Assembly: GCA_015233195.1 (NCBI GenBank)
Contig: JADFYE010000010.1
Span: 9,869-73,868, forward strand
Length of the DNA: 64,000 nucleotides
Reading direction: 5' to 3'
Source: Candidatus Omnitrophota bacterium
Lineage (GTDB): Bacteria > Omnitrophota > Gorgyraeia > Zapsychrales > Zapsychraceae
Below the pieces are notes generated by a model. The model was given only the letters and a program-made list of their open reading frames with translations, was not told where the DNA came from and made no database searches. Shown one piece after another: positions 3,159 through 50,791 of this stretch. A program made the position numbers and the translations under genes. Each line of letters opens with the position of its first letter. Positions within the stretch are counted from its first letter, which is position 1.

Positions 3159-3195
3159 AAAAATCCTTTTTGTATTTTAATGATATTTAAATTTT

Positions 3196-3228
3196 TATAT
3201 GGGCACGAAGTATCGTGCCCCTACGCAT
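3196..3228. repeat. GGGCAC hairpin repeat, copy 1 (gggcacga-agta-tcgtgccc + ctacg)
   Basis: 8-bp perfect stem at 3201-3220. Near-identical copies at 18682-18714 and 48587-48618. Confidence 0.85.
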
Positions 3229-3249
3229 ATCAATACTCTATACTATTTA

Positions 3250-15475: not shown

Positions 15476-15510
15476 GCATATCCTATCTTATATACATTTT
15501 TCAATTTGAT

Positions 15511-15938
15511 CCCTTCTACCCTTTGGGGAGAAGGTTAGGATGAGGGGATAATTTCTTCAATTTTATTTTCAATAACTTCGTAAACCCCATCCATGTTTAT
15601 CAGAACATCGTTATTTGCAAACCGCAAAATTTTTATGCCTTGAGATTCTAAATATTTACTTCGAGTTTTATCTTTACGCTCACCAATATCTTCATAATGC
15701 TGACCCCCATCTATTTCAATTGCTAATTTAATTGATGGAGCATAAAAATCGATTATGTAATTCCCGATTGAAAATTGTCTCCTAAATTTAATATTTTTAA
15801 TTTGTTGATTTCTAACATACAACCAAATTAATTTTTCAGCGTCTGTTTGCTCTTTACGAAGATCTCGACAATAATCAATATTCGGTCTTTTTGGCATTAC
15901 CCCTCACCCTAACCCTCTCCCCAGAGGCTGGAGAGGGG
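15511..15938 (-). mobile_element. DUF559 endonuclease gene bracketed by inverted ~38-nt hairpin repeats (cassette-like insertion in the his operon)
   Basis: Left arm 15511-15547 is the reverse complement of right arm 15900-15938 at most positions. The gene fills the interval almost exactly. The same repeat occurs solo elsewhere. Confidence 0.45.
15535..15897 (-). CDS. DUF559 (Vsr/restriction-endonuclease-fold) protein
   Basis: 'TDAEKLIW..VRN', 'FRRQFSIGNYIIDFY', 'LAIEIDGGQH' and 'GIKILRFANNDV' match the DUF559 pattern. Confidence 0.85.
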   Translation of the reverse strand: MPKRPNIDYCRDLRKEQTDAEKLIWLYVRNQQIKNIKFRRQFSIGNYIIDFYAPSIKLAIEIDGGQHYEDIGERKDKTRSKYLESQGIKILRFANNDVLINMDGVYEVIENKIEEIIPSS

Positions 15939-15961
15939 ACTTTCCCATCTATCTATACTCT

Positions 15962-16564
15962 CTACTCTATACTAATAAAGTTTTTAATTATTTCCAACCC
16001 TACTTCCTGGCTTTTTTCTGGGTGGAATTGGACTCCAAAAATATTATTCGAACATATCGACGAGCAATAATCTATACCATAATTAGTGGTTGTTGCAATA
16101 ATACTCTGATCCTTAGGTTTTACATAATACGAATGACAAAAATATACATTCGACTGATCTGGAATATTTTTAAAAATAGCGCAATTCTTATTAGAAATAT
16201 TTAACTGATTCCATCCCATTTGCGGCACTTTTAATTTAGTAAATTTTTCAACGCTACCTTTTAATATTCCCAGCCCCTCAACTTTACCGCCTTCATAACC
16301 AACTTCAAACAATATCTGAAATCCCAAGCATATACCAAAAAACGGTTTATTCTCGTTGACCACATTTTTTATCACAGGAATAAGCCCGAGTTCAGTTAAT
16401 TTTTCCATAGCTGGACGCATCGCGCCTACCCCGGGAAGCACGATTTTTTGAGCAGCTTTAATATCACTGGCTTTTTGCGTAACTACAGTTTCTGCTCCGG
16501 CTTTTTCAAAAGCCTTTTGCACGCTGCGTAAATTACCCATGCCATAGTCGATGATTGCAATCAT
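15962..16564 (-). CDS. hisH: imidazole glycerol phosphate synthase glutaminase subunit
   Basis: 'IAIIDYGMGNLRSV', 'LPGVGA', catalytic 'GICLGFQ' and 'FGVQFHPEKS'. Confidence 0.94.
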   Translation of the reverse strand: MIAIIDYGMGNLRSVQKAFEKAGAETVVTQKASDIKAAQKIVLPGVGAMRPAMEKLTELGLIPVIKNVVNENKPFFGICLGFQILFEVGYEGGKVEGLGILKGSVEKFTKLKVPQMGWNQLNISNKNCAIFKNIPDQSNVYFCHSYYVKPKDQSIIATTTNYGIDYCSSICSNNIFGVQFHPEKSQEVGLEIIKNFISIE

Positions 16565-16567
16565 GTG

Positions 16568-17179
16568 TTAATCAATTATACCTTTTGTCGATGGAACAGA
16601 ATCTGGTCTTGCTGGATTGATCCGGGTTGCTTCATGCAAAGCCAAACCCAAGGCTTTAAACGCAGCCTCTAAGTTGGTATGCAGATCTTCGCTAGTTCCC
16701 TCGATCTTTACGTTAACAGTAGCGCCGATATTATGCGCGAAAGATTCAAGGAAATGTTCAAGGTAAGCCATAGTATAGCCATCTTCATTTTTAATATTCA
16801 CTTTATCCATATTTTCAATGGTCAAAGTCAAATAACCCCGACCGCTAATATCAACCACTGCCCGTCCTAAAGTAGACTCCATCGGAGCATATGCAGAACC
16901 AAAACGTTTAATCCCTTGCATTTCACCCAAAGCTTTTTTAAACAATTTGCCTAACACTATACCAATATCTTCATTAGTATGATGGATATCAATTTCCAAA
17001 TCAGCTTTCTTCACTGCCAATTCCAAATCAAAACAAGCATGGAACGCGAACAGATCCAACATATGGTCGAGCAAACCAATATTAGTCTTGATCTTACTCT
17101 TGCCCCGCCCATCAATATTTATTGACGCGGTAATTTCAGTTTCTTTACTTTTTCGCTCCAGCTGCGCTTTTCGTTCCAT
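16568..17179 (-). CDS. hisB: imidazoleglycerol-phosphate dehydratase
   Basis: 'HMLD', 'HHTNEDIGI' and 'HNIGA/HFLESF' IGPD motifs. The track start 17227 is a GTG inside the repeat (translated 'PSPASGERARVRG'). ATG 17179 ('MERKAQLERK') is preferred. Confidence 0.92.
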   Translation of the reverse strand: MERKAQLERKSKETEITASINIDGRGKSKIKTNIGLLDHMLDLFAFHACFDLELAVKKADLEIDIHHTNEDIGIVLGKLFKKALGEMQGIKRFGSAYAPMESTLGRAVVDISGRGYLTLTIENMDKVNIKNEDGYTMAYLEHFLESFAHNIGATVNVKIEGTSEDLHTNLEAAFKALGLALHEATRINPARPDSVPSTKGIID

Positions 17180-17183
17180 ATTT

Positions 17184-17221
17184 CCCCTCACCCTTGCCCT
17201 CTCCCCAGAGGCTGGAGAGGG
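17184..17221. repeat. 38-nt CU/GA hairpin repeat (cccctcaccc..ccctctcc..ggagaggg)
   Basis: One of 7 copies: 15511-15547, 15900-15938, 17184-17221, 21835-21871, 21897-21933, 41684-41722 and 50543-50575. Confidence 0.9.
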
Positions 17222-17246
17222 AATCACTTTAATTTATTATTTAAAA

Positions 17247-17423
17247 ACAAATTTTTAAAAATTAAAAGGCGCAGGTATTTAAGCGGACGTTGATAATTCG
17301 AGCGGGCACGGTTTGGACGAGTTTTATCGTCCAAGAGCGAGAATTATCTTCGAGCGTAGTTTAGTCTCGCAGGGACTAGCAAGCGTTCCGCGAAATACCG
17401 AAGACTTTTATCTAAAAATTTGT
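17247..17423. repeat. ~170-nt branched-hairpin intergenic element, copy 1 (candidate structured RNA or MITE)
   Basis: Terminal inverted repeats acaaattttt/aaaaatttgt. Nested helices aaaag.c/g.ctttt, ggtattt/aaatacc, gcgga/tccgc and gataattc/gaattatc. Two tip hairpins. Confidence 0.85.
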
Positions 17424-17438
17424 TAATTATATCACTTT

Positions 17439-18662
17439 TTACTTAAATCTAACCTTGACCGATTCAGAATGTTTCTCCAATCCTTCCAAACTCGCAATCT
17501 GAATTATAGCATCTTTTACCTTTTCCAAAGCCTTTTTTGAATACGAAATAACATGACTCTTTTTCATAAAATGATCAGTGCCTAGACCAGAAAAATACTT
17601 TGCAGATCCTAAAGTCGGCAGAACATGACTGGGTCCTGCAGCATAATCCCCTAAAGCTGTTGGACTGTACGGTCCCAAAAATATCGCCCCAGCATTTATT
17701 ATACGTTTAGCAATAACATTTGGATTATTAGTCATAATTTCTAAATGTTCAGGCGCTATTTTATTAGCAATATCAGCAGCTTCCTCAATATTTTTCGCTA
17801 ATACACCATATCCAGCCGGCACACGATTACGCATTTGTTTCAATAATTGTTTTGAAGTTGAAATCAAAATTGCTAATCCACCCAAATGCTCTATCTGCCC
17901 TTCCATATCTGCAGCAATAAAATCCGGATTAGAATGACGGTTAGCAATGATCGCTAACTCCGACGGTCCAGCTAACATATCAATATCCACAAACCCAAAA
18001 ACCTGACGTTTCGCTTCAGTAACATACATATTACCCGGACCAACAATTTTATGCACCCTAGGTATAGTCTTAGTACCTAAAGCCAAAGCCGCGATCGCTT
18101 GCGCTCCTCCAACTTTATAAATTTCATTCACCTTTAATAAATTCGCAACAGCCAATACATAAGGATTAACATGACCATTTTTATTCGGTGGAGTCATGAT
18201 AACAATACGTTTAACACCTGCGACTTTAGCTGGGATTACTGTCATATATACCGTCGACACTAACGGAGCAGTGCCTGCTGGAATATAAATACCAACCGCG
18301 TCCAAAGGTAAAATTGTTTCTCTTAATATAACCCCTTCTTCAGCTTTAACAAAACATGGACTCTGTTTATGAGTCTTGTAGAACGTAGTCACGTTCTTAA
18401 TTATCATTTTTAAATTTTCAACAAAATCAGTCGTGATATTCTGGAACGCAGCGCTTATCTCGCTTTCAGGCACCCGCAAATCTTTGGCTGTCAGCTTAAC
18501 TCCGTCGAACTTACGAGTATATTTAATCACCGCGTCATCGCCCTGCAAACGCACATCTTCGATTATTTGACGGACTTTCTCGCCCAAGCTTCTTTTATGT
18601 ACTTGAACATCACGGTTATAAATATCTTGTAAACTTTTTCCGGTTTGAGTCAGAATTTTCAT
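17439..18662 (-). CDS. hisD: histidinol dehydrogenase
   Basis: 407 aa. 'GGAQAIAALA.GT', 'IVGPGN.YV..AK', 'AGPSE' and 'EH' motifs. Confidence 0.93.
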   Translation of the reverse strand: MKILTQTGKSLQDIYNRDVQVHKRSLGEKVRQIIEDVRLQGDDAVIKYTRKFDGVKLTAKDLRVPESEISAAFQNITTDFVENLKMIIKNVTTFYKTHKQSPCFVKAEEGVILRETILPLDAVGIYIPAGTAPLVSTVYMTVIPAKVAGVKRIVIMTPPNKNGHVNPYVLAVANLLKVNEIYKVGGAQAIAALALGTKTIPRVHKIVGPGNMYVTEAKRQVFGFVDIDMLAGPSELAIIANRHSNPDFIAADMEGQIEHLGGLAILISTSKQLLKQMRNRVPAGYGVLAKNIEEAADIANKIAPEHLEIMTNNPNVIAKRIINAGAIFLGPYSPTALGDYAAGPSHVLPTLGSAKYFSGLGTDHFMKKSHVISYSKKALEKVKDAIIQIASLEGLEKHSESVKVRFK

Positions 18663-18681
18663 ATATTTGCTCGTTTAATTT

Positions 18682-18714
18682 TATTTGGGCACGAAGTATC
18701 GTGCCCCTACGAAT
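18682..18714. repeat. GGGCAC hairpin repeat, copy 2
   Basis: gggcacgaagtatcgtgccc at 18687-18706. The conserved 'cctacg' tail contains the alaS stop codon. Confidence 0.85.
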
Positions 18715-21376
18715 TTTTTCTATCGTCTATCTTCTTCTTTGTTATTTGATAAGCAGCGTCAACAGCTCTATCTAAATTTTTTGTATCCTTGCTTCCAGCC
18801 TGCGCCATTTGTGGTCTGCCGCCGCCTTTACCACTAAATAAATCAGCTGCGTCTTTAATAAGCTCATTCGCATTTAAGCCTTGTTTCACCAGATCATCTG
18901 AAACTGTTATCAAAATTGTAGCACTATCTACTGATCTGGCTCCTAAAATCGATACTGACGACTTAACTTTTTGTTTTATCAAATCTGATAACTTACGTAG
19001 AATATTTATATCAACGTCTTCTAAAACCTGCACAACAATCTTACTGTCTTTAACCTGCGTTCCTTTTTGAATAATCTGATCTATGCCAGATTTTACCGCC
19101 TCAAACTTAAATTGTTCTAACTGTTTTTCAAGATCCTTAACCCGAGCGGATTGAGCAATAGTTTTATCTGCCAATTCTGTTACCGGACATTTAAATAAAT
19201 CAGCCAATTTATCTAACGTGCTTTCCTGCTCTTCAACAAACATAACTGCGTCCATACCAGTCTTAGCTTCAATCCGACGGATGCCCTGTGCGATCGCACT
19301 CTCTCCCACAATTTTAAATAAACCAATTTCACCTGTTGAATCCAAATGTGTACCACCGCAAAATTCTTTTGAATAATCACCAATAGAAATAACTCTGACT
19401 ACATCGCCGTATTTTTCCGCAAAAAATGCTAAAGCACCAGTTGATTTAGCCTCTGTAATAGGCAAGAATTCTTTGGTAACGCAGTCACAAGCTAAAATAT
19501 ATTCATTCACTCTGCGTTCAACTTTAAGTAAGTCAGCTCTTGTAATAGCTTGGTGATGTGTAAAATCCAAACGTAAACGATCATCGGAAACATACGAACC
19601 TTGCTGTTGAACATGCGTGCCTAAAATTTCCCTCAAAGCAGCTTGCAAAAGATGAGTTGCAGTATGATTACGCATAACTGCCCAGCGTCGATCAATATCA
19701 ATTTCAGCTGCCACTAAATCACCAACCTCGAACTTTCCTTTTTCTACCACACCCAAATGCAAAAACACTTCTGAAATTTTCTGAGTATCAGTGATCTTTA
19801 AAATATTTTCGCCTTTACTAATATATCCAACATCGCCAATCTGCCCGCCGGATTCAGCATAAAAAGGTGATCGATCTAAAACTATTTTTGCCTGATCCCC
19901 TTGTTTAATTTCATGAACTGGTTTATTATCCTTAAATATTCTCAAAATCGAATCTGTGGTCTTAAAATGTTTATAACCAGTAAAATCCGTCTTAGGAATA
20001 TTTAGCTCTAAAGTATTATTAGTAAATACATCGCCAGTCATTTTGCTCGATGCCCTGGATTTTTCCTGCTGCTCTGCCATTAAATGATCAAACTCGTTTT
20101 TTACCGAAGAAAAAAATGAGCTGTCATTTCCAAACACTTTAATCAAAGGCTCTTTCATGGTCTCTAAAGTCAAACCATACGTGTCACGGAAATTAAACAA
20201 TATTACTCCTACTTCTTTGTGCGCCAAATTTACAGCTAATCCCTTTTCTTTAATTTTAACCAATTCTTTTTCAAATTCCGGTATGCGTTCTTTCCTTAAC
20301 TTTATATAACCAGCCTCAATATTTTTAACTAAATTCTCAATGTCTTTATGCTTAGCTTTTATCTCAGGATATTGATCTGCCATAGCTTCGATCACAGAAG
20401 GTATTAATTTATAAACACAAGGTTCATGCTTACCGCTGCGGATTGCTATATCAGAGATAGTGATAATCAATTTTTTCATGATATAACCACGTCCTTCATT
20501 AGAAGGAATTACCCCGTCTGAAATACCAAAAGTAACTGCCCGGATATGATCAGCCATAACCCGTTTTTCCCGCAAAGACAATTTCGCGTTTACATTCTGA
20601 TCAATTGATTTTAAAATCGGTTCAAACAAAGTAGTATCAAAATTATTATGTTTACCCTGCATTAAAGCAGTTAAACGTTCCAAGCCCATACCTGTATCAA
20701 TGTTCTTATTGGGTAATGGTTCCAAAACCCCTCCGTCTTTACGCTCAAACTGTGTAAATACCAAATTCCAAATTTCACAAAAACGTCCCATTTCATCGTC
20801 TGGGTCTTTGGGCGCGTTTTTAATTCCTTTTGTTTCCCATTCATAATCAAAAAATATTTCAGAACAAGGACCACACGGACCATTCGGACCATTAAGCCTA
20901 GCATTAGACGGCCAAAAATTACTTTTATCGCCTAAACGAAAAAGTTTTATATCTTTAATACCTACTTCTTTAAGCCAAATTTGTTCAGCTTCTTTGTCTT
21001 CTTTATTTACTGATACCCATAATTTTTCCGAAGGAATGCCTAATTCTTTGGTCAAGAATTCCCACGCCCAGAAAATCGCCTCGCGTTTAAAATAATCTCC
21101 AAAAGAAAAATTACCCAACATCTCGAAAAAAGTATGATGAAAGTCGGTCTTACCTACCTCGTCCAGATCATCAGTACGCAAACATTTTTGAGCAGTAGCT
21201 GCTCGTCTGAAATCAGTAATATCCCCTAGAAATTGGCGTTTGAATTGCTGCATACCTGCAGTAGTGAACAAAACAGTTGGGTCATCTTTAGGCACTAATG
21301 AATCGCTTGCAATAACCTTATGCCCTTTAGAAGCAAAAAAATTCAAATATTTTCTGCGGATTTCGCTAGTCGTCAT
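18707..21376 (-). CDS. alaS: alanine--tRNA ligase
   Basis: 889 aa. 'FTTAGM..FK', 'QKC.R..D...VG', editing-domain 'HTATHLL' and 'CGGTH'. C-terminal DHHA1-like region. Confidence 0.96.
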   Translation of the reverse strand: MTTSEIRRKYLNFFASKGHKVIASDSLVPKDDPTVLFTTAGMQQFKRQFLGDITDFRRAATAQKCLRTDDLDEVGKTDFHHTFFEMLGNFSFGDYFKREAIFWAWEFLTKELGIPSEKLWVSVNKEDKEAEQIWLKEVGIKDIKLFRLGDKSNFWPSNARLNGPNGPCGPCSEIFFDYEWETKGIKNAPKDPDDEMGRFCEIWNLVFTQFERKDGGVLEPLPNKNIDTGMGLERLTALMQGKHNNFDTTLFEPILKSIDQNVNAKLSLREKRVMADHIRAVTFGISDGVIPSNEGRGYIMKKLIITISDIAIRSGKHEPCVYKLIPSVIEAMADQYPEIKAKHKDIENLVKNIEAGYIKLRKERIPEFEKELVKIKEKGLAVNLAHKEVGVILFNFRDTYGLTLETMKEPLIKVFGNDSSFFSSVKNEFDHLMAEQQEKSRASSKMTGDVFTNNTLELNIPKTDFTGYKHFKTTDSILRIFKDNKPVHEIKQGDQAKIVLDRSPFYAESGGQIGDVGYISKGENILKITDTQKISEVFLHLGVVEKGKFEVGDLVAAEIDIDRRWAVMRNHTATHLLQAALREILGTHVQQQGSYVSDDRLRLDFTHHQAITRADLLKVERRVNEYILACDCVTKEFLPITEAKSTGALAFFAEKYGDVVRVISIGDYSKEFCGGTHLDSTGEIGLFKIVGESAIAQGIRRIEAKTGMDAVMFVEEQESTLDKLADLFKCPVTELADKTIAQSARVKDLEKQLEQFKFEAVKSGIDQIIQKGTQVKDSKIVVQVLEDVDINILRKLSDLIKQKVKSSVSILGARSVDSATILITVSDDLVKQGLNANELIKDAADLFSGKGGGRPQMAQAGSKDTKNLDRAVDAAYQITKKKIDDRKNS

Positions 21377-21828
21377 ATTTGGTCAATTACTTTCTTGATC
21401 GACGAGAAACCAAAACCCCGTCGTAATAAAAAATTATAAATACGTTGTTTGAATTTATCATTATCGGAGTGAACGCCATGCTGCAGTTTACGGTCTACTA
21501 ATGAACGGATCATTGCAAGTTCATCGTATTCCTCGCTGGCAAAGCCTAAAGTCTTTTTTAAAATTTCTTTATCAATACCCTTATCGAGCAATTCTCGTCT
21601 GATCCGGTTTATGCCAAAAGGCTTATTTAAACGCGAATTCACCCATGCCTTAGCAAAATCCTCATCATTGACCAAACCGGTGTTCTTAAAATATTCAATA
21701 GTCTGGTCTATAACTGATAGATCAAATTTTTTCTCTTTAAGTTTTGCCTTTAACTCGTATTCACTCCGCGGCCGATAATTCAAGAGCCGGTAAACTGCGT
21801 TTTTTGCTGACGATAAATCATTTTTCAT
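21373..21828 (-). CDS. recX: recombination regulator RecX
   Basis: 151 aa helical repeat protein ('YLNYRPRSEYEL..KL', 'FGINRIRRELLDKGI') between recA and alaS. Confidence 0.8.
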   Translation of the reverse strand: MKNDLSSAKNAVYRLLNYRPRSEYELKAKLKEKKFDLSVIDQTIEYFKNTGLVNDEDFAKAWVNSRLNKPFGINRIRRELLDKGIDKEILKKTLGFASEEYDELAMIRSLVDRKLQHGVHSDNDKFKQRIYNFLLRRGFGFSSIKKVIDQI

Positions 21829-21834
21829 TTTTAT

Positions 21835-21933
21835 CTCTTCTCCCCTCCGGGGAGAAGATTAAGATGAGGGGTTTTAATAATTTTTATTTTTTAATTCCCC
21901 TCACCCTGCCCTCTCCCCATAGGTTGGAGAGGG
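21835..21933. repeat. inverted pair of the 38-nt hairpin repeat with a 25-nt AT-only spacer (gene-less counterpart of the DUF559 cassette arms)
   Basis: 21835-21871 (ctcttctcccctccggggagaagattaagatgagggg) and 21897-21933 (cccctcaccctgccctctccccataggttggagaggg) have the same relative orientation as the arms at 15511 and 15900. Confidence 0.85.
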
Positions 21934-21934
21934 T

Positions 21935-22951
21935 TTATTTCAACCCTAACTTCGTCTTAATTTCTTTTTCAATCTTCGCTAAAATTTTTGGATTCTCTTT
22001 TAAAAATTTGCGAGAATTTTCTTTTCCCTGCCCAATCTTTTCATTTTCAAAAGCAAACCAAGCACCAGATTTTACTACCACATTATTCTTAGCGCCTAAT
22101 TCCAAAATATCCGCTTCCTTGGAAATACCTTCTGAAAAATACGTCTCAAATTCAGCTTCTTTAAAAGGCGCAGCAACTTTATTCTTAACAATCTTGGCTT
22201 TTACCAAATTGCCTATAAATTCATCGCCTTGTTTCAAGCTCTCGATCTTGCGCAACTCAATACGTACTGAAGAATAAAATTTTAAAGCGCGTCCACCGGT
22301 AGTAGTTTCAGGATTGCCAAACATAACCCCGATCTTCATGCGGATCTGATTAATAAAAATGATGCAAGTATTGGATTTATTGATCGCTGCAGTCAATTTT
22401 CTTAATGCTTGCGACATCAAACGGGCATGTAAACCCATATGCGAATCACCCATTTCACCTTCAATCTCTGCCCGAGGAGTTAAGGCAGCGACTGAATCAA
22501 TGACTACCAAATCAACTGCGCTGGAACGAACCAAAGTCTCAGCGATTTCAAGTGCCTGTTCTCCGGTATCAGGTTGAGAAATCAAAAGATCCTCAAGTTT
22601 AATCCCTAATTTTTTTGCATAATTCGCGTCAAACGCATGTTCAGCGTCTATAAAAGCAGCAGTACCGCCCATTTTTTGTACTTGTTTAATAATACTTAAA
22701 GTCAGAGTAGTTTTTCCTGAAGACTCCTGCCCAAATATCTCGATAACCCTTCCCCGAGGCACCCCGCCCACACCTAAAGCCACATCTAAAGTCAATGAAC
22801 CAGTAGGAATAGCTTCAATGTCAAAGCTCAGACTTCCGTCCAGCTTCATGATTGAACCTTTCCCAAATTGCTTTTCAATTTGAGATAATGCTAATTCTAA
22901 TGCTTTTTTCTTGTTCTCCAACTCCACATTAATTTTTTTCTCTTCAGCCAC
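21935..22951 (-). CDS. recA: recombinase RecA
   Basis: Walker A '[10 protein letters not shown]', 'AFIDAEHA' and 'VVIDSVAAL'. GTG start. Confidence 0.97.
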
Positions 22952-38569: not shown

Positions 38570-39194
38570 TGTGTTTTTCCATTAACTCAACTGCTGAGCG
38601 ATCCATCTCATTAATAAACTGCGTTATCCTGTACTCACAATAATTATAAGCAATAAAAGCCAAAATACCGACCAACATGCCAGCTACTGTAGTTAAAATC
38701 GCGGACCACACTCCAAAAGCAAGATCTCCAGTAGTGAATGGCTGTAAAGCTTTAGTCTTTACTTCAATCGTACGAAAAATTACTGCCATACCAGTAGCTG
38801 TTCCTAATAATCCGAGCAATGGACTTATATACGTTATGCTAGAAAGAAAAATAAGATTGATTTTAAACTCCGGAATCAGCAAATCGCCCGCGTTTTTCAT
38901 GCTTTCTTTTATTTCAATTCTCGACGCGCTGAACTTAATTAATCCGGCTTTAATAATCTTAGCTGAAGGAGAACTACTGCCTTCACATATCGCGTAAGCT
39001 TCCTTAAGTTTATTGAGACTAATCAAATCAAATACCCGGTCTTTTAATAACTGCACGTCGGCTCTTATTGAATTAAAATACATCAGTCTTTCAATAAAAA
39101 TCGTCAAAGTTATCACCGAACATAATATGATCGGGATCAAAATCGGTCCGCCGGAAATTATCAATTGAAAAAAATTCATAGCACTATTTTCCAT
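38562..39194 (-). CDS. MotA/TolQ/ExbB-family proton channel
   Basis: 3 TM segments. 'ISPLLGLLGTATGM' and 'AILTTVAGMLVGI' signatures. Confidence 0.85.
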   Translation of the reverse strand: MENSAMNFFQLIISGGPILIPIILCSVITLTIFIERLMYFNSIRADVQLLKDRVFDLISLNKLKEAYAICEGSSSPSAKIIKAGLIKFSASRIEIKESMKNAGDLLIPEFKINLIFLSSITYISPLLGLLGTATGMAVIFRTIEVKTKALQPFTTGDLAFGVWSAILTTVAGMLVGILAFIAYNYCEYRITQFINEMDRSAVELMEKHNV

Positions 39195-41676
39195 TCGTTG
39201 TAATTACTTTATTATTAATCCAATCCAATCGCTCTTGCGCGAATTTTTTCTCCTCTACATTATAACTAAGCACTTTCTGATAAATCTGTTTTGCTTTAAT
39301 CCACTCATCCTGGTCTTCAAATATTCTCGCAACTCTAAGGTACGCCTTAACTGCCCATAAAGTCTGATCAATATAAAGATATGGAATCTTCAAATATTCG
39401 TCGAGAGCCTTATCCGTGTTATTCATCAACTCATAATCGTCTGCCAGACTAAACCTGATCTCAGCGTCAGGCGTGTGGCTCTGTCCTTTTACTGATTTCA
39501 AAGCATTTTCATAATATTGTGCTGCCTTTTGCTGATCATTCTGGCTCTTATATATTTCCGCGATTTTAAATAACGCATCTTTTGCAAAACTTGGGACTTT
39601 ATCCAGCATAGTCTTATACGTAGCAATCGCTGCATCAGGATCCATTTTTTGGGATAGAATTTCAGCTATCGCGCTCTTAGCTTTAACAAATATTTCCGGA
39701 GAAACTGTCTCAGAAATATTTTTAAACGACTCAATCGCTGCCTTATAGTCATTATTAGCTTTATATGCCTGACCTAAAGAATAATATACTTCGACCAGCC
39801 TCTTATTACCGGGGAAACTTTTAATGAATTCATTATAATGACTGATCGCGTAATTATAATCTCCGGCTTCCAAATAATGGTCGCCCAGCCAAATTAAAGC
39901 TTCTTGTCCAGCGTCGGAATCATGATATTTTGTTGCAACATTCCTAAATCTTTTCAAAGCTTCATTAATATTTCCGTTTTTATATAAACACTTTGCGATA
40001 TGCAATTCTGAATTTTTTACAATATTAGAATCACTCGGATACTCCTTTATTATTTTCTGAAAGACTGCTGCAGCTTCCGTGTATTTAGCTAAATTAAAAT
40101 TTGATAATCCTAATATATAATTCGCTTCTGAACGAAACTCGCTGCTATCCGTAGATTCTTTAAGAAAAGCACTCGCCTGCTCCATAGCGGTCTGCCATTG
40201 TTCCTGTTTAAAATATGCGACTGCAAGATAATATTTAGCGTCTTTTAAATATTTACTTTTTGGAAAGTTGGCTTGTAAAGTCTGTAAAGATAAAGTAGCA
40301 GCTTCGATCTTATTTTGTTTTAATAGGGTTACTGCCTGACGATATTGAACATAATCCGTATATGGACCAGCCGGAAATTCACCTAATATCTTGTCATAAA
40401 CTTCTACTGCTTGGTCCAACTGTCCGGCTTCCTGATACGCGTCTCCAATCTGGGTCATAGCGCTGATACGAATCGTATTATTATCAGTCTTACTTTGAAT
40501 GGTCTCAAAAGTATGAATTGAAAGATCCAGCGCCCCAGCTTTCATGTAACTCCACCCTAACGCGAAATAAGCTTTCTCCACAATATCAGGATAATCAGCG
40601 GACGCTTCATATTTATTTATTATCGCCCGGTAATCTTTTATTGCTGCATCATATTTCTGTTCTTGATAATAAGTGTTGCCTCTGCCTAATAATGCTTCGG
40701 GTACTCTCGGGCTATCTTGATATTTATTGACTATCTCAGAATAAGCGGACAAAGCCTTATCCACATTATTAGTCTCAGAATACAAAGATGCCAATCCCAA
40801 ATAAACATCATCTGCAGGTATACTCTTACTCTGCGCAAAACTTAAAGCATCGTTAAAATTTTTTTCTGAAAGATCATATTTCCCCAACTTTAAATAACAC
40901 CAACCCAAGCTTACCTTAGACGCAAAAATAGTCTTATTATCATACGATAAGCTCGCGGATTTTGCATAATACCCTACCGCATCCAACGGCTGGTTAAGAT
41001 AATAAAATGATTCTCCAATATAAAAATATGCCTCAGGATGTTTGACTGAATCCGGATAAGTATTTATATATTTTATGAAATGTTCCGTAGTTTTTTCATA
41101 ATTTTTTTGGGTATATAATATCTCACCTATTTTAAAAGCAGCGTCTTCAGCTAACTGATTGTCTGGAAATTTTTTTAAAATTTTTTCAAATATATCCTGA
41201 GCCTTCGTATAATCATTCTGAACAAAATATGTCCAGCCTAGAGAATAATAAGCCTGCGGCGCGTAAATCGAATCCGGATACGCGTCAATAACTTGTTTAT
41301 ACATTTCTTCAGCCTGTTTATAGTCCGAACCTTTTAAATACGTCTCACCCAGCCAGAATAAAGTAGCATCTTTAAATTGGGAGTATTGACTGGTTTCTTT
41401 AAAATAATTGAATGCCTTTAAATATTCACTTTTGAAAAAATAACATTGTCCTAATAAAAGTTTTGACTCAACTGACTTCGTGGTCTGAGGATAGTCCCGC
41501 ATTAATTGTTCGATATACCGGATGGATATATCATAGAACCCGTCGTCAAAAGCCTTTTGCGCTACTAAAAATAATTCTTCATCGCCTTCGGCAAAGGCGT
41601 CACGCGCGGTAAAACTAACTGCGGTTAAAACGACAAAAATAAAAACCAATATTATTCTTAAAAACTTCTTATTCAT
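39184..41676 (-). CDS. large secreted TPR protein (YbgF/BamD-type repeats)
   Basis: Signal peptide, then repeated '..YP(D/K)S....EA.Y.LG..Y' units. The track start 41691 is the GTG inside the repeat. ATG 41676 ('MNKKFLRI') is preferred. Confidence 0.75.
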   Translation of the reverse strand: MNKKFLRIILVFIFVVLTAVSFTARDAFAEGDEELFLVAQKAFDDGFYDISIRYIEQLMRDYPQTTKSVESKLLLGQCYFFKSEYLKAFNYFKETSQYSQFKDATLFWLGETYLKGSDYKQAEEMYKQVIDAYPDSIYAPQAYYSLGWTYFVQNDYTKAQDIFEKILKKFPDNQLAEDAAFKIGEILYTQKNYEKTTEHFIKYINTYPDSVKHPEAYFYIGESFYYLNQPLDAVGYYAKSASLSYDNKTIFASKVSLGWCYLKLGKYDLSEKNFNDALSFAQSKSIPADDVYLGLASLYSETNNVDKALSAYSEIVNKYQDSPRVPEALLGRGNTYYQEQKYDAAIKDYRAIINKYEASADYPDIVEKAYFALGWSYMKAGALDLSIHTFETIQSKTDNNTIRISAMTQIGDAYQEAGQLDQAVEVYDKILGEFPAGPYTDYVQYRQAVTLLKQNKIEAATLSLQTLQANFPKSKYLKDAKYYLAVAYFKQEQWQTAMEQASAFLKESTDSSEFRSEANYILGLSNFNLAKYTEAAAVFQKIIKEYPSDSNIVKNSELHIAKCLYKNGNINEALKRFRNVATKYHDSDAGQEALIWLGDHYLEAGDYNYAISHYNEFIKSFPGNKRLVEVYYSLGQAYKANNDYKAAIESFKNISETVSPEIFVKAKSAIAEILSQKMDPDAAIATYKTMLDKVPSFAKDALFKIAEIYKSQNDQQKAAQYYENALKSVKGQSHTPDAEIRFSLADDYELMNNTDKALDEYLKIPYLYIDQTLWAVKAYLRVARIFEDQDEWIKAKQIYQKVLSYNVEEKKFAQERLDWINNKVITTNGK

Positions 41677-41683
41677 ATAACAA

Positions 41684-41722
41684 CCCCTCACCCTAACCCT
41701 CTCCCCATAGGCTGGAGAGGGG
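41684..41722. repeat. 38-nt CU/GA hairpin repeat
   Basis: cccctcaccctaaccctctccccataggctggagagggg. On the minus strand it ends GAGGGG, 7 nt before the TPR gene ATG. Confidence 0.9.
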
Positions 41723-41773
41723 AAAATTTAGTTTTTCTATTTTAAATTCACAGATAAAATTAAATATATATAA

Positions 41774-41948
41774 GCAAATTTTTTATATTAAAAGACGCAG
41801 GTATTTCAGCGGACGTTGATAATTCGAGCAGGCACGGTTCGTACATGCTTCACCGTACGAGAGCGAGAATTATCGTCGAGCGCAGTTAGACTAGCCGGGG
41901 CTAACCAGCGTTCCGCAAAATACCTAAGTCTTTTAACCAAAAATTTGC
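41774..41948. repeat. ~170-nt branched-hairpin intergenic element, copy 2
   Basis: TIR gcaaattttt/aaaaatttgc. P1 aaaagac/gtctttt. Tip hairpins tcgtac/gtacga and gttag/ctaac. Confidence 0.85.
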
Positions 41949-44854: not shown

Positions 44855-45157
44855 TTACTTTTTCTTAGCTTTTTTTGCTGCTTTTTTTGCCGGTTTTTTT
44901 GCTGCTTTTTTTGCCGGTTTTTTTGACTTTTTTTTGCCGCCTCTTACCATTGCTGCGCAGGAGATATCGCCATCTTTATCGATGAAATACAAGAAACCTG
45001 CTTGTTTTTTCAAACCGACTTTAGTGACTTTTTTAGGTTTTCCGCCTTTTTCTCCGCCGCGTGCCATCTTCGCGCAGGAAATATCTCCGTCTTTATCGAC
45101 GAAATATAAAAATCCTGCTTCCTTCTTGATACCTACTTTAGCTGCTTTCTTTGACAT
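44855..45157 (-). CDS. small lysine-rich protein: two ~38-aa repeats plus histone-H1-like KKPAKKAA tail
   Basis: 'KVG(I/L)KK(E/Q)AGFLYF(V/I)DKDGDISCA.M.RGG' occurs twice. Tail is 'KKPAKKAAKKPAKKAAKKAKKK'. AAAGGGGA SD and its own terminator. Confidence 0.7.
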   Translation of the reverse strand: MSKKAAKVGIKKEAGFLYFVDKDGDISCAKMARGGEKGGKPKKVTKVGLKKQAGFLYFIDKDGDISCAAMVRGGKKKSKKPAKKAAKKPAKKAAKKAKKK

Positions 45158-48582: not shown

Positions 48583-48586
48583 TTTT

Positions 48587-48618
48587 TATTTGGGCACAAA
48601 TTATTGTGCCCCTACGAA
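48587..48618. repeat. GGGCAC hairpin repeat, copy 3
   Basis: gggcacaa-atta-ttgtgccc at 48592-48611. It carries a compensated G-C to A-T change relative to copies 1 and 2. Confidence 0.85.
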
Positions 48619-48638
48619 TAACTATATTCTTTTACAAT

Positions 48639-50536: not shown

Positions 50537-50542
50537 AAAATT

Positions 50543-50575
50543 CCCCTCACCTAACCTCTCCCACAAAGGGAGAGG
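50543..50575. repeat. 38-nt CU/GA hairpin repeat (shorter variant)
   Basis: cccctcacctaacctctcccacaaagggagagg. Its minus-strand GAGGGG lies 6 nt before the dapB ATG. Confidence 0.85.
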
Positions 50576-50622
50576 AAAATTAATCTATCTTTATTTTAAA
50601 ATTCGTAAACGACATTGTACGA

Positions 50623-50791
50623 ACAAATTTTTTAAATAAAAGTCGAAGGTATTTAAGCGGACATTGGTAATTCGAGCGGGCACGGTTCGTACGCCAAAAG
50701 CGTACGAGAGCGAGAATTACCGCGAGCGTAGTTTAACACGCTGGGTTAAACAAGCGTTCCGCGAAATACCGAAGACTTTTAAAAAAATTTG
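50623..50791. repeat. ~170-nt branched-hairpin intergenic element, copy 3
   Basis: P1 aaaagtc/gactttt. P4 ggtaattc/gaattacc, a double compensatory change relative to copies 1 and 2. Tip hairpins tcgtacgc/gcgtacga and gtttaac/gttaaac. Confidence 0.85.

Follow-up and report, generated by a model that had tools for sequence, protein, structure and literature searches.

The recA and recX genes of a Candidatus Omnitrophica metagenome-assembled genome (MAG) lie on the minus strand of a 64-kb stretch of DNA (the window, by which we mean throughout the whole stretch that was analysed) and are separated by 106 nt (21829-21934) that hold an inverted pair of short repeats and no gene. Here we describe this pair, its kinship with a second pair that encloses a gene for a DUF559 endonuclease, and the place of both in the BoxC family of repeats. 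The two genes, as placed by Pfam and a listing of open reading frames (ORFs), and the parts of the element between them are:

21373..21828, minus strand: recX (Pfam RecX HTH1-3), its ATG 6 nt off the beta arm
21835..21871, plus strand: recX-side arm, variant "beta", with stem TCTTCTCCCC/GGGGAGAAGA, TTA and core AGATGAGGGG
21872..21896, no strand: spacer of 25 nt between the inward-facing cores, pure A/T with zero G or C
21897..21933, minus strand: recA-side arm, variant "alpha", on the plus strand core CCCCTCACCC, TG and stem CCCTCTCC/GGAGAGGG
21935..22951, minus strand: recA (Pfam RecA, E=1e-135), its stop codon 1 nt off the alpha arm

Read along the plus strand, the gap comprises a 6-nt flank, an arm, the spacer, an arm and a single nucleotide before the recA stop codon. 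The pair measures 99 nt in total, with arms of 37-38 nt that match at 27 positions when they are aligned to each other in inverted orientation. The blocks of the beta arm stand at 21836-45 (TCTTCTCCCC), 21849-58 (GGGGAGAAGA) and 21862-71 (AGATGAGGGG), with a TCC loop between the first two and TTA before the third; the alpha arm, read on the minus strand, runs CCCTCTCC, a 9-nt loop, GGAGAGGG, CA and the core GGGTGAGGGG. A first-pass annotation had described two inward-facing arms around 25 nt of pure A/T at 21835-21933, beginning 1 nt past the recA stop codon and ending 6 nt short of the recX ATG; the sequence bears out this arrangement, and both distances are exact. The annotation had also set aside the plus-strand ORF 21744..22277 as an artefact of translating the repeats, a judgement we share because this ORF has no Pfam match and runs antisense to two solid genes, recX and recA.

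Copies of the arms recur across the window. By chance, 0.01 copies of the core CCCCTCAYCYT and 0.00 of the hairpin part of the arm would be expected, and six and four are present; altogether there are seven arms per 64 kb, the seventh degenerate, and all of them are intergenic or overlap only the last codons of the DUF559 gene. They fall into two variants: alpha has the stem CCCTCTCC/GGAGAGGG and the core GGGTGAGGGG, beta the stem CTTCTCCCC/GGGGAGAAG and the core GATGAGGGG. Each of the two beta arms is partnered by an alpha arm, with the cores facing inward and in the same order; one of these alpha-beta pairs encloses the DUF559 gene and the other only the 25-nt spacer between recA and recX. 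The gene-bearing pair, hereafter the cassette, lies 6 kb away and is built as follows:

15511..15547, plus strand: cassette beta arm, overlapping the final codons of the DUF559 gene, whose stop codon is the TAA loop of the arm
15535..15897, minus strand: DUF559 (Vsr-like PD-(D/E)XK) endonuclease gene, 120 aa (PF04480, E=1.7e-34)
15900..15940, minus strand: cassette alpha arm, its core GGGTGAGGGG stopping 2 nt before the DUF559 ATG, with 34/36 matches to the E. coli consensus

The recA-side arm shares 34 matches with the upstream arm of the cassette, the recX-side arm shares 31 of 37 positions with the downstream arm, and the 9-nt loop of the alpha hairpin, a lineage-specific feature, is common to the recA-recX pair and the cassette. 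The arms of the pair are thus kin to those of the cassette, and the earlier claim that they take the same relative arrangement as those around 15535..15897(-) stands, since the same two variants are found with inward cores.

The arrival of both pairs can be read from comparison with L218, a 179-kb contig of GCA_015233115.1 that is the closest sequenced relative (RecA 94%, HisA 82% and RecX 65% identical, the last being P0102, the best RecX relative) and that has the gene order recA-recX-alaS-hisD-hisB-hisH-hisA in common with the window. The recA and recX genes of L218 stand 3 nt apart (TAA, AAC, ATG), its hisH and hisA genes overlap in ATGA at the site of the cassette, and no BoxC motif was found in its 20-kb syntenic locus; the syntenic part of the window has five arms. 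Because of these three observations, the gene-less pair and the cassette are identified by synteny as lineage-specific insertions into tight junctions, and a unit of ~100 nt entered a junction of formerly 2-3 nt after the split from this relative. The first-pass annotation had described the junction as built entirely from the element, and what remains without it in L218 is merely the TAA-AAC-ATG. More distant metagenome recA-recX loci (L210-L217; RecX 34-52% identical, 34-39% over near-full-length matches) likewise have junctions of ~0-9 nt from which the pair is absent; these relatives were used for junction tightness alone, and an exact look-up of the window RecX returned no match. At both ends of the recA-recX unit stands ATAAA (or TAA), from which an empty site GAAATAAAAATG would follow, but in A/T-rich DNA this does not stand out from chance; no target-site duplication was seen for the cassette when it was compared with L218. 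Around the cassette we observe outer extras that are absent from L218, namely 21 nt that part the hisH stop codon from the alpha arm (15941-15962) and 34 nt from the beta arm to the hisA ATG (15476-15510). The two flanks have a loose direct repeat in common (GTATAGATAGAT and GTATATAAGATAGGAT), and the extra sequence may belong to the element or be a target duplication that is long and decayed.

Judged by their sequence, the arms are BoxC, a repeat first described in E. coli and present in >260 other prokaryotes (Holder et al. 2015, PMC4666352), known in later work as the PIT element and, later still, as TM_ECO, a triplex motif (TM) (Bergler 1992; Bachellier 1999; Hoyne and Maher 2000-2002; this history as recounted in PMC4666352). 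All seven arms in the window show a pyrimidine block, a complementary purine block and a mirror-repeat purine block, which is the three-block plan of the TM: CCCTCTCCC, loop, GGGAGAGGG, loop, GGGTGAGGG(G) (PMC4666352). Against the E. coli TM consensus CCCTCGCCCCTTTGGGGAGAGGGTTAGGGTGAGGGG (PMC4666352 Table 1) the alpha arms score 32-34/36, the beta arms 28-32/36 and the degenerate arm 31; the recA-side arm matches the E. coli consensus at 32/36 positions and the recX-side arm the TM type-A consensus at 28/36. The MG1655 genome holds 23 TM copies, including five inverted pairs that each unite both subtypes (PMC4666352), and the table coordinates of the same paper place 4/5 of these pairs in inward orientation with spacers of 16-27 nt. 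The recA-recX pair has every sequence-level feature by which BoxC/PIT/TM is recognised: three blocks, the consensus, intergenic multi-copy occurrence and pairing of subtypes.

Because subtype pairs with short spacers are documented in E. coli, the gene-less inverted pair is an already known BoxC configuration, here met as a copy in a Candidatus Omnitrophica MAG. The window copies agree with BoxC of E. coli in their three blocks, in being intergenic and multi-copy, in forming inverted subtype pairs (with a spacer of 25 nt here) and in loci that vary among close relatives. They differ in the length of the alpha loops (8-9 nt instead of 3-5 nt), in their host, an AT-rich Candidatus Omnitrophica MAG, in the pure A/T of the spacer, in the position of the pair inside an operon, between stop and start codons that are otherwise 3 nt apart, and in that the arms also enclose a DUF559 gene, whereas the published work on BoxC/PIT states explicitly that there is no mobility gene nearby (PMC4666352). 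In a genome of 36.5% GC the arms are 57-69% GC and the spacer is pure A/T, which points to the arms as the constrained part of the element and to a spacer that is free to drift.

The DUF559 protein of the cassette has all the family-invariant residues (alignment A1), and its homologues include P0002, which is 76% identical. A profile from A1 searched against the PDB matched 3HRL (E=2.5e-32) and, as a distant relationship, the homing endonuclease I-Bth0305I (3R3P, E=5e-5). A homologue that is 57% identical, in an unrelated metagenome (L001), is framed alike (hairpin, GGGTGAGGGGG, ATG...TAA, AT, CCCCTCACC, hairpin) in a cassette that sits in a secretion or pilus operon, and the C- or N-terminal tails of many DUF559 homologues are translated arms. 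We took a census of 80 GTDB loci from Thermodesulfovibrionia, Planctomycetes, candidate-phyla-radiation groups, Pseudomonas, Bradyrhizobium, Sphingomonas, Methylococcaceae, Nitrospirota and others, in which a core was counted if it lay <=150 nt from the DUF559 gene and 1282 windows >400 nt from the gene served as controls. A forward core stands upstream of the gene at 27/80 loci, a reverse core downstream at 25/80 and both at 19/80, the opposite orientations being found at 4 and 5 of 80. The background is ~1% (cores in 12 and 9 of the 1282 control windows), giving odds ratios of 54 and 64 (p ~1e-26).

This association of DUF559 with BoxC across phyla, in the orientation seen in the window, appears to be new: we found no paper linking the two in the literature on DUF559, ycjD, BoxC and the intrastrand triplex, a literature covered mostly outside subscription journals. 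Decayed arms bound the E. coli DUF559 gene ycjD (NC_000913 1351407-1351760, L047) on both sides, and a fragment from the 3' part of the gene is duplicated. TM no. 9 lies ~170 nt downstream of ycjD, which fills the sapF-fabI gap exactly in strains without eefRABCD (PMC12817139). In the study of Milman et al., genes struck by inverted repeats were 14-fold enriched for "DUF559 domain-containing protein" (PMC9881135).

The gene-less pair is itself a recurrent unit. Viral contigs were scanned with exact patterns that demanded the full left arm and the right core, and the distances between the arms were distributed as follows:

Spacers of 1-31 nt: 45 loci
Spacers of 32-62 nt: 38 loci
Spacers of 63-93 nt: 16 loci
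Inserts of 345-375 nt: 6 loci, two with a DUF559 ORF
Inserts of 376-406 nt: 1 locus, on a contig that independently matched DUF559

The spacers are continuous in length from 12 to 92 nt, and the insert sizes are not cleanly bimodal. They group into sequence families that are often palindromic and have the base composition of the host. Pairs that join differing arm subtypes across a short spacer comprise 5/5 of the E. coli pairs and ~100 further loci, and gene-less pairs and single arms are far more numerous than cassettes, both in E. coli (23 arms and one decayed ycjD) and on viral contigs.

How such pairs behave within one species was surveyed in 5426 complete E. coli genomes at the pair loci fepB-entC, ygfF-gcvP and alx-sstT:

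NC_000913 624579-624676 (L262): fepB-entC BoxC pair, a 186-nt indel present in 2755/5426 genomes
NC_000913 3239599-3239698 (L265): alx-sstT BoxC pair, intact, collapsed or swapped for unrelated DNA

The fepB-entC indel has the boundaries GTTAA|GGGCG...ATCAA|TAATGC, in which TAA is possible as a duplication, though again it does not stand out from chance in A/T-rich DNA. The collapse at alx-sstT, seen in some strains, is a 75-nt deletion by recombination between two CCCTCTCCC blocks that leaves one hairpin. A query across ygfF-gcvP has full coverage in 3026 genomes and matches the gcvP side alone in the remainder. Among the matches listed for the three loci there was no DUF559 gene inside a pair and no clear target duplication.

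We pooled 202 distinct arms from L002-L046, L127-L206, L219-L261 and the window; 8 of them at block position 1 and 9 at block position 3 have C-G*G replaced by T-A*A in all three blocks together, as against changes in one or two blocks alone in 7 (position 1) and 5 (position 3). The recX-side arm of the window, TCTTCTCCCC / GGGGAGAAGA / AGATGAGGGG, has both mirrored changes; other co-varying lineages are exemplified by CCTTCTCCC/GGGAGAAGG/GGATGAGGG (7 arms) and TCCTCTCCC/GGGAGAGGA/AGGTGAGGG (5 arms). The blocks have co-varied independently in several lineages of arms, consistent with selection for a structure that is triplex-capable or mirror-symmetric. The isolated G-rich strand of the E. coli element forms an intrastrand purine-motif triplex by circular dichroism and nuclear magnetic resonance. 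The TM of E. coli has been found to form no stable triplex in vivo and to have raised local variability (PMC4666352). G-quadruplex motifs are present in 4/5 alpha arms, among them the G-rich strand of the recA-side arm, and these are 4 of the 5 such motifs in the window. Folding predictions give the two arm hairpins and a central one for the DNA of the whole unit. For its coding-strand RNA they give a single long stem-loop with interruptions (-53.5 kcal/mol, z = -6.5), in which GGAGGGGAGAAGAG, the candidate Shine-Dalgarno sequence of recX, is mostly base-paired.

From these data we favour, with modest confidence, the explanation that the recA-recX pair is a gene-less member, similar to a miniature inverted-repeat transposable element (MITE), of a DUF559-associated BoxC element, with an incidental effect on recX. 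The first-pass annotation had offered a non-autonomous derivative of the DUF559 cassette as one of three readings; the arm subtypes, their order and orientation and the common 9-nt loop make it the best supported, short of proof, and the direction of derivation is what we infer. The pair would relate to the cassette as a MITE does to its autonomous element. The Vsr-like DUF559 endonuclease would recognise and nick the structured arms (hairpin plus mirror-repeat third block) in trans, and the element would then be copied through host repair or recombination. The arms, near-identical to the E. coli consensus, would be under selection, and the spacer would have drifted to A/T. Once in place, the stem-loop RNA would break the translational coupling of recA and recX, and most of the Shine-Dalgarno-like stretch of recX would be buried in the fold, so that RecX would be lowered relative to RecA. 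A side effect on recX expression is thus likely on the folding model, and we infer that the element is not an evolved regulator of recX. A broader proposal, which we put forward tentatively and doubt rather more than we believe, is that BoxC repeats in general may derive from a mobile DUF559 cassette found across phyla, some as its ends and others as versions without the gene. Such a system would be REPtron-like but based on another nuclease fold, its enzyme would recognise a triplex-capable DNA structure of a hairpin plus a mirror block, and the recA-recX pair would be a non-autonomous copy that transposed recently.

Several observations weigh against this explanation. Recognisable arms stand at only 19-33/80 DUF559 loci, and on viral contigs at 1/43 DUF559 genes. 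BoxC is present in 5426/5426 complete E. coli genomes and ycjD in 3378, which means that BoxC persists without ycjD. The distance from gene to arm ranges from ~0 to 100 nt among DUF559 loci, and the spacer of the pair has no similarity to the interior ends of the cassette (scores 7 and 10, the latter reached by 6.7% of random windows). The empty sites are defined from one close relative, the ATAAA/TAA duplication is weak in A/T-rich DNA and none is established, DUF559 is not a known transposase and its binding or cutting of the arms is a proposal, and the expression effects are predictions. As a separate matter, the idea that arms are a property of all DUF559 genes was rejected, since 42 of the 43 viral-contig relatives are without them.

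Among the other ways to account for the pair, that of a landing pad was also named in the first-pass annotation. Taken as an empty homing site, it supposes that BoxC spread by means unrelated to DUF559 and that a homing-like DUF559 nuclease cuts an unoccupied pair between its arms, into which the gene is then copied from an occupied one; the recA-recX pair would in that case be a vacant target and would not derive from the cassette. The profile match to I-Bth0305I agrees with this, as do the great excess of gene-less pairs and single arms over cassettes and the 2048 E. coli genomes that have BoxC and no ycjD; the variable gene-arm distance among loci fits repeated independent landings. However, gene-less spacers differ between families in length (12-92 nt) and sequence and so present no conserved central target, the arms offer just ~38 nt of homology per side, and no DUF559 gene is found inside a pair among the matches listed for the three loci in 5426 E. 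coli genomes. L218 moreover lacks arms at both sites, which means that the arms themselves, at least, are mobile. We consider the landing pad unlikely. Lower still do we place the chance that the pair is a footprint of deletion in situ, in which a full cassette once stood at recA-recX and lost its gene, leaving the arms and a remnant of spacer. The arm subtypes, order and orientation do equal those of the cassette, E. coli pairs do undergo internal deletions between repeated blocks (seen here and in PMC4666352), and the spacer matches an internal stretch of DUF559 at 20/24 positions, a score that 0.6% of random windows reach. Yet that match is A/T-only, of low complexity, internal and uncorrected for several comparisons, and we judge it to be chance; the known relatives are without a cassette at recA-recX; and gene-less pairs with spacers of 12-55 nt recur across phyla with family-specific, often palindromic spacers, of which random deletions are an unlikely source.

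Hairpins of the REP type can stabilise the mRNA upstream of them, and RecA is inhibited by RecX. A double hairpin might be kept by host selection to attenuate recA-recX or to stabilise the recA message and so set the ratio of RecA to RecX, much as the first-pass annotation had suggested in its third reading, an attenuator. The predicted RNA is indeed very stable, the unit is placed exactly from stop to start, and most of the purine-rich stretch before the recX ATG is paired. Against this, the pair is absent from L218 (RecA 94% identical, genes 3 nt apart) and from the distant junctions of L210-L217, and is not a conserved part of the junction; the element also occurs in his, dapB-like and DUF559 contexts; and the pair lacks the hairpin plus U-run of an intrinsic terminator, with no terminator-like site on either strand and no U-tract in 21600-22200 and with A-rich sequence after both hairpins on the mRNA strand. 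PIT/BoxC elements showed neither promoter nor terminator activity in E. coli (PMC4666352). The attenuator accordingly fares poorly, and we think host selection for regulation very improbable. It is hardly credible that two single arms inserted independently, next to each other and in opposite orientation, by coincidence. Alpha arms without a beta partner exist (17184, 41684 and 50537), but neither beta arm of the window lacks an alpha partner, with the order of the two the same each time; subtype pairs recur in 5/5 E. coli pairs and ~100 other loci, and the target in the ancestral junction is just 2-3 nt.

A gene-less, DUF559-associated BoxC unit of the kind we favour resembles several known mobile systems. 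Like the repetitive extragenic palindromic (REP) sequences and BIMEs with their RAYT genes (the "REPtron"), it consists of short GC-rich palindromic extragenic repeats that are dispersed in multiple copies, often as inverted pairs; in both, one small nuclease-type gene is flanked by inverted copies of the repeat, and repeats within operons can alter the fate of the mRNA. RAYT, however, is a HUH/Y1 (IS200/IS605-like) transposase whereas the gene in the window is a PF04480 Vsr-like PD-(D/E)XK nuclease, BoxC is unrelated in sequence to REP and the action of DUF559 on BoxC is putative; the likeness is one of architecture only and the pair is not a member of REP/RAYT. With bacterial MITEs such as Correia, ERIC/IRU and RUP it shares a size of ~100 nt, terminal inverted repeats, a strong RNA hairpin, a position between genes of an operon, presence or absence among close relatives (here an orthologous empty site in L218) and a longer gene-bearing version with the same ends, which is found in the window and at 19/80 DUF559 loci. 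That version encodes a DUF559 nuclease and not a recognised transposase, the pair is without a demonstrated target duplication, and, unusually for a MITE, the termini of BoxC stay conserved from phylum to phylum. The Vsr-like homing endonucleases of the I-Bth0305I/EDxHD type, Vsr itself and 3HRL of N. gonorrhoeae are likewise small nicking or cutting nucleases, some of them linked to selfish gene mobility, and the DUF559 profile matches I-Bth0305I, a proven homing endonuclease, if distantly (E=5e-5); I-Bth0305I is intron-encoded and has extra DNA-binding parts, whereas the DUF559 protein of the window, of 120 aa, is encoded by a free-standing gene between structured repeats.

The other alpha arms of the window have no beta partner and lie at the following positions:

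17184..17222, minus strand: alpha arm without beta partner, stopping 4 nt before the likely hisB ATG
41684..41723, minus strand: alpha arm without beta partner, stopping 7 nt before the ATG of an 835-aa gene
50537..50578, minus strand: degenerate alpha arm, core GGTGAGGGG, stopping 6 nt before the ATG (50535) of an ORF with the product MSIKLAISG...

With that of the cassette, the four alpha arms outside the recA-recX pair stop 2-7 nt before start codons (those of DUF559, the likely hisB, the 835-aa gene and the MSIKLAISG ORF), and from its position their GAGGGG end can serve as a candidate ribosome-binding site. The arms also mislead annotation by giving rise to false ORFs and N-terminal extensions (PLTL.. 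and GEG.. peptides): the minus-strand ORFs 16568-17227 and 39184-41691 start at a GTG in or beyond an alpha arm and gain extensions such as MIPSPASGERARVRGN, and the hisB-like and 835-aa genes more likely begin at ATG codons a few bases past the arm (17181 and 41676).

A further structured repeat of ~160 nt occurs on the minus strand in three copies (17250-17410, 41776-41935 and 50625-50781; 81-88% identity), each 50-90 nt upstream, in minus orientation, of an alpha arm that abuts a start codon. Because this repeat accompanies the three unpaired alpha arms, every alpha arm in the window is partnered by a beta arm or by a 160-nt repeat. RNAalifold predicts 46 pairs for it, 6 with compensatory changes, at -44 kcal/mol. 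It belongs to no Rfam family, no copy of it was found in the viral contigs or the other loci compared, and a search by E-value across the region 17150-17450 yielded nothing but a spurious snoRNA match; Rfam at gathering thresholds had no match in the window, which has neither tRNA nor tmRNA. The 160-nt repeat is not present in the syntenic hisD-hisB gap of L218. That gap (L218 14657-15045) holds instead a frameshifted ORF (89 aa + 46 aa; MDEKITTYQDLRIWKFGVEIV...) with GTATGT-type direct repeats around it, whose product, we presume, resembles the "four-helix-bundle / 23S rRNA intervening-sequence" proteins. The hisD-hisB junction, which holds this ORF in L218 but an alpha arm and a copy of the 160-nt repeat in the window, is thus a repeated target for small insertions. 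A second short hairpin repeat, TTTGGGCACGAAGTATCGTGCCCCTACG, is found at 3192-3239, 18678-18725 and 48583-48630 (77-83% identity), one copy being in the 44-nt alaS-hisD gap, and may be terminator-like or REP-like. A tandem array at 44859-44930, of ~6 units with a period of 12 nt (TTTTTTGCTGCT / TTTTTTGCCGGT), is probably a repetitive coding stretch on the minus strand.

The origin of BoxC/PIT has been a question since the early 1990s, and the link with DUF559 hints at what spreads these repeats. The recA-recX pair provides a clean case of a unit wedged into a 3-nt junction of coupled genes, with GC-rich arms that are kept almost unchanged between E. coli and an AT-rich Omnitrophica genome. If DUF559 recognises the arms, the spread of a widespread repeat family would be explained, a very large family built on a domain of unknown function would acquire a function, and the in-vivo relevance of a triplex-capable structure would become directly testable.

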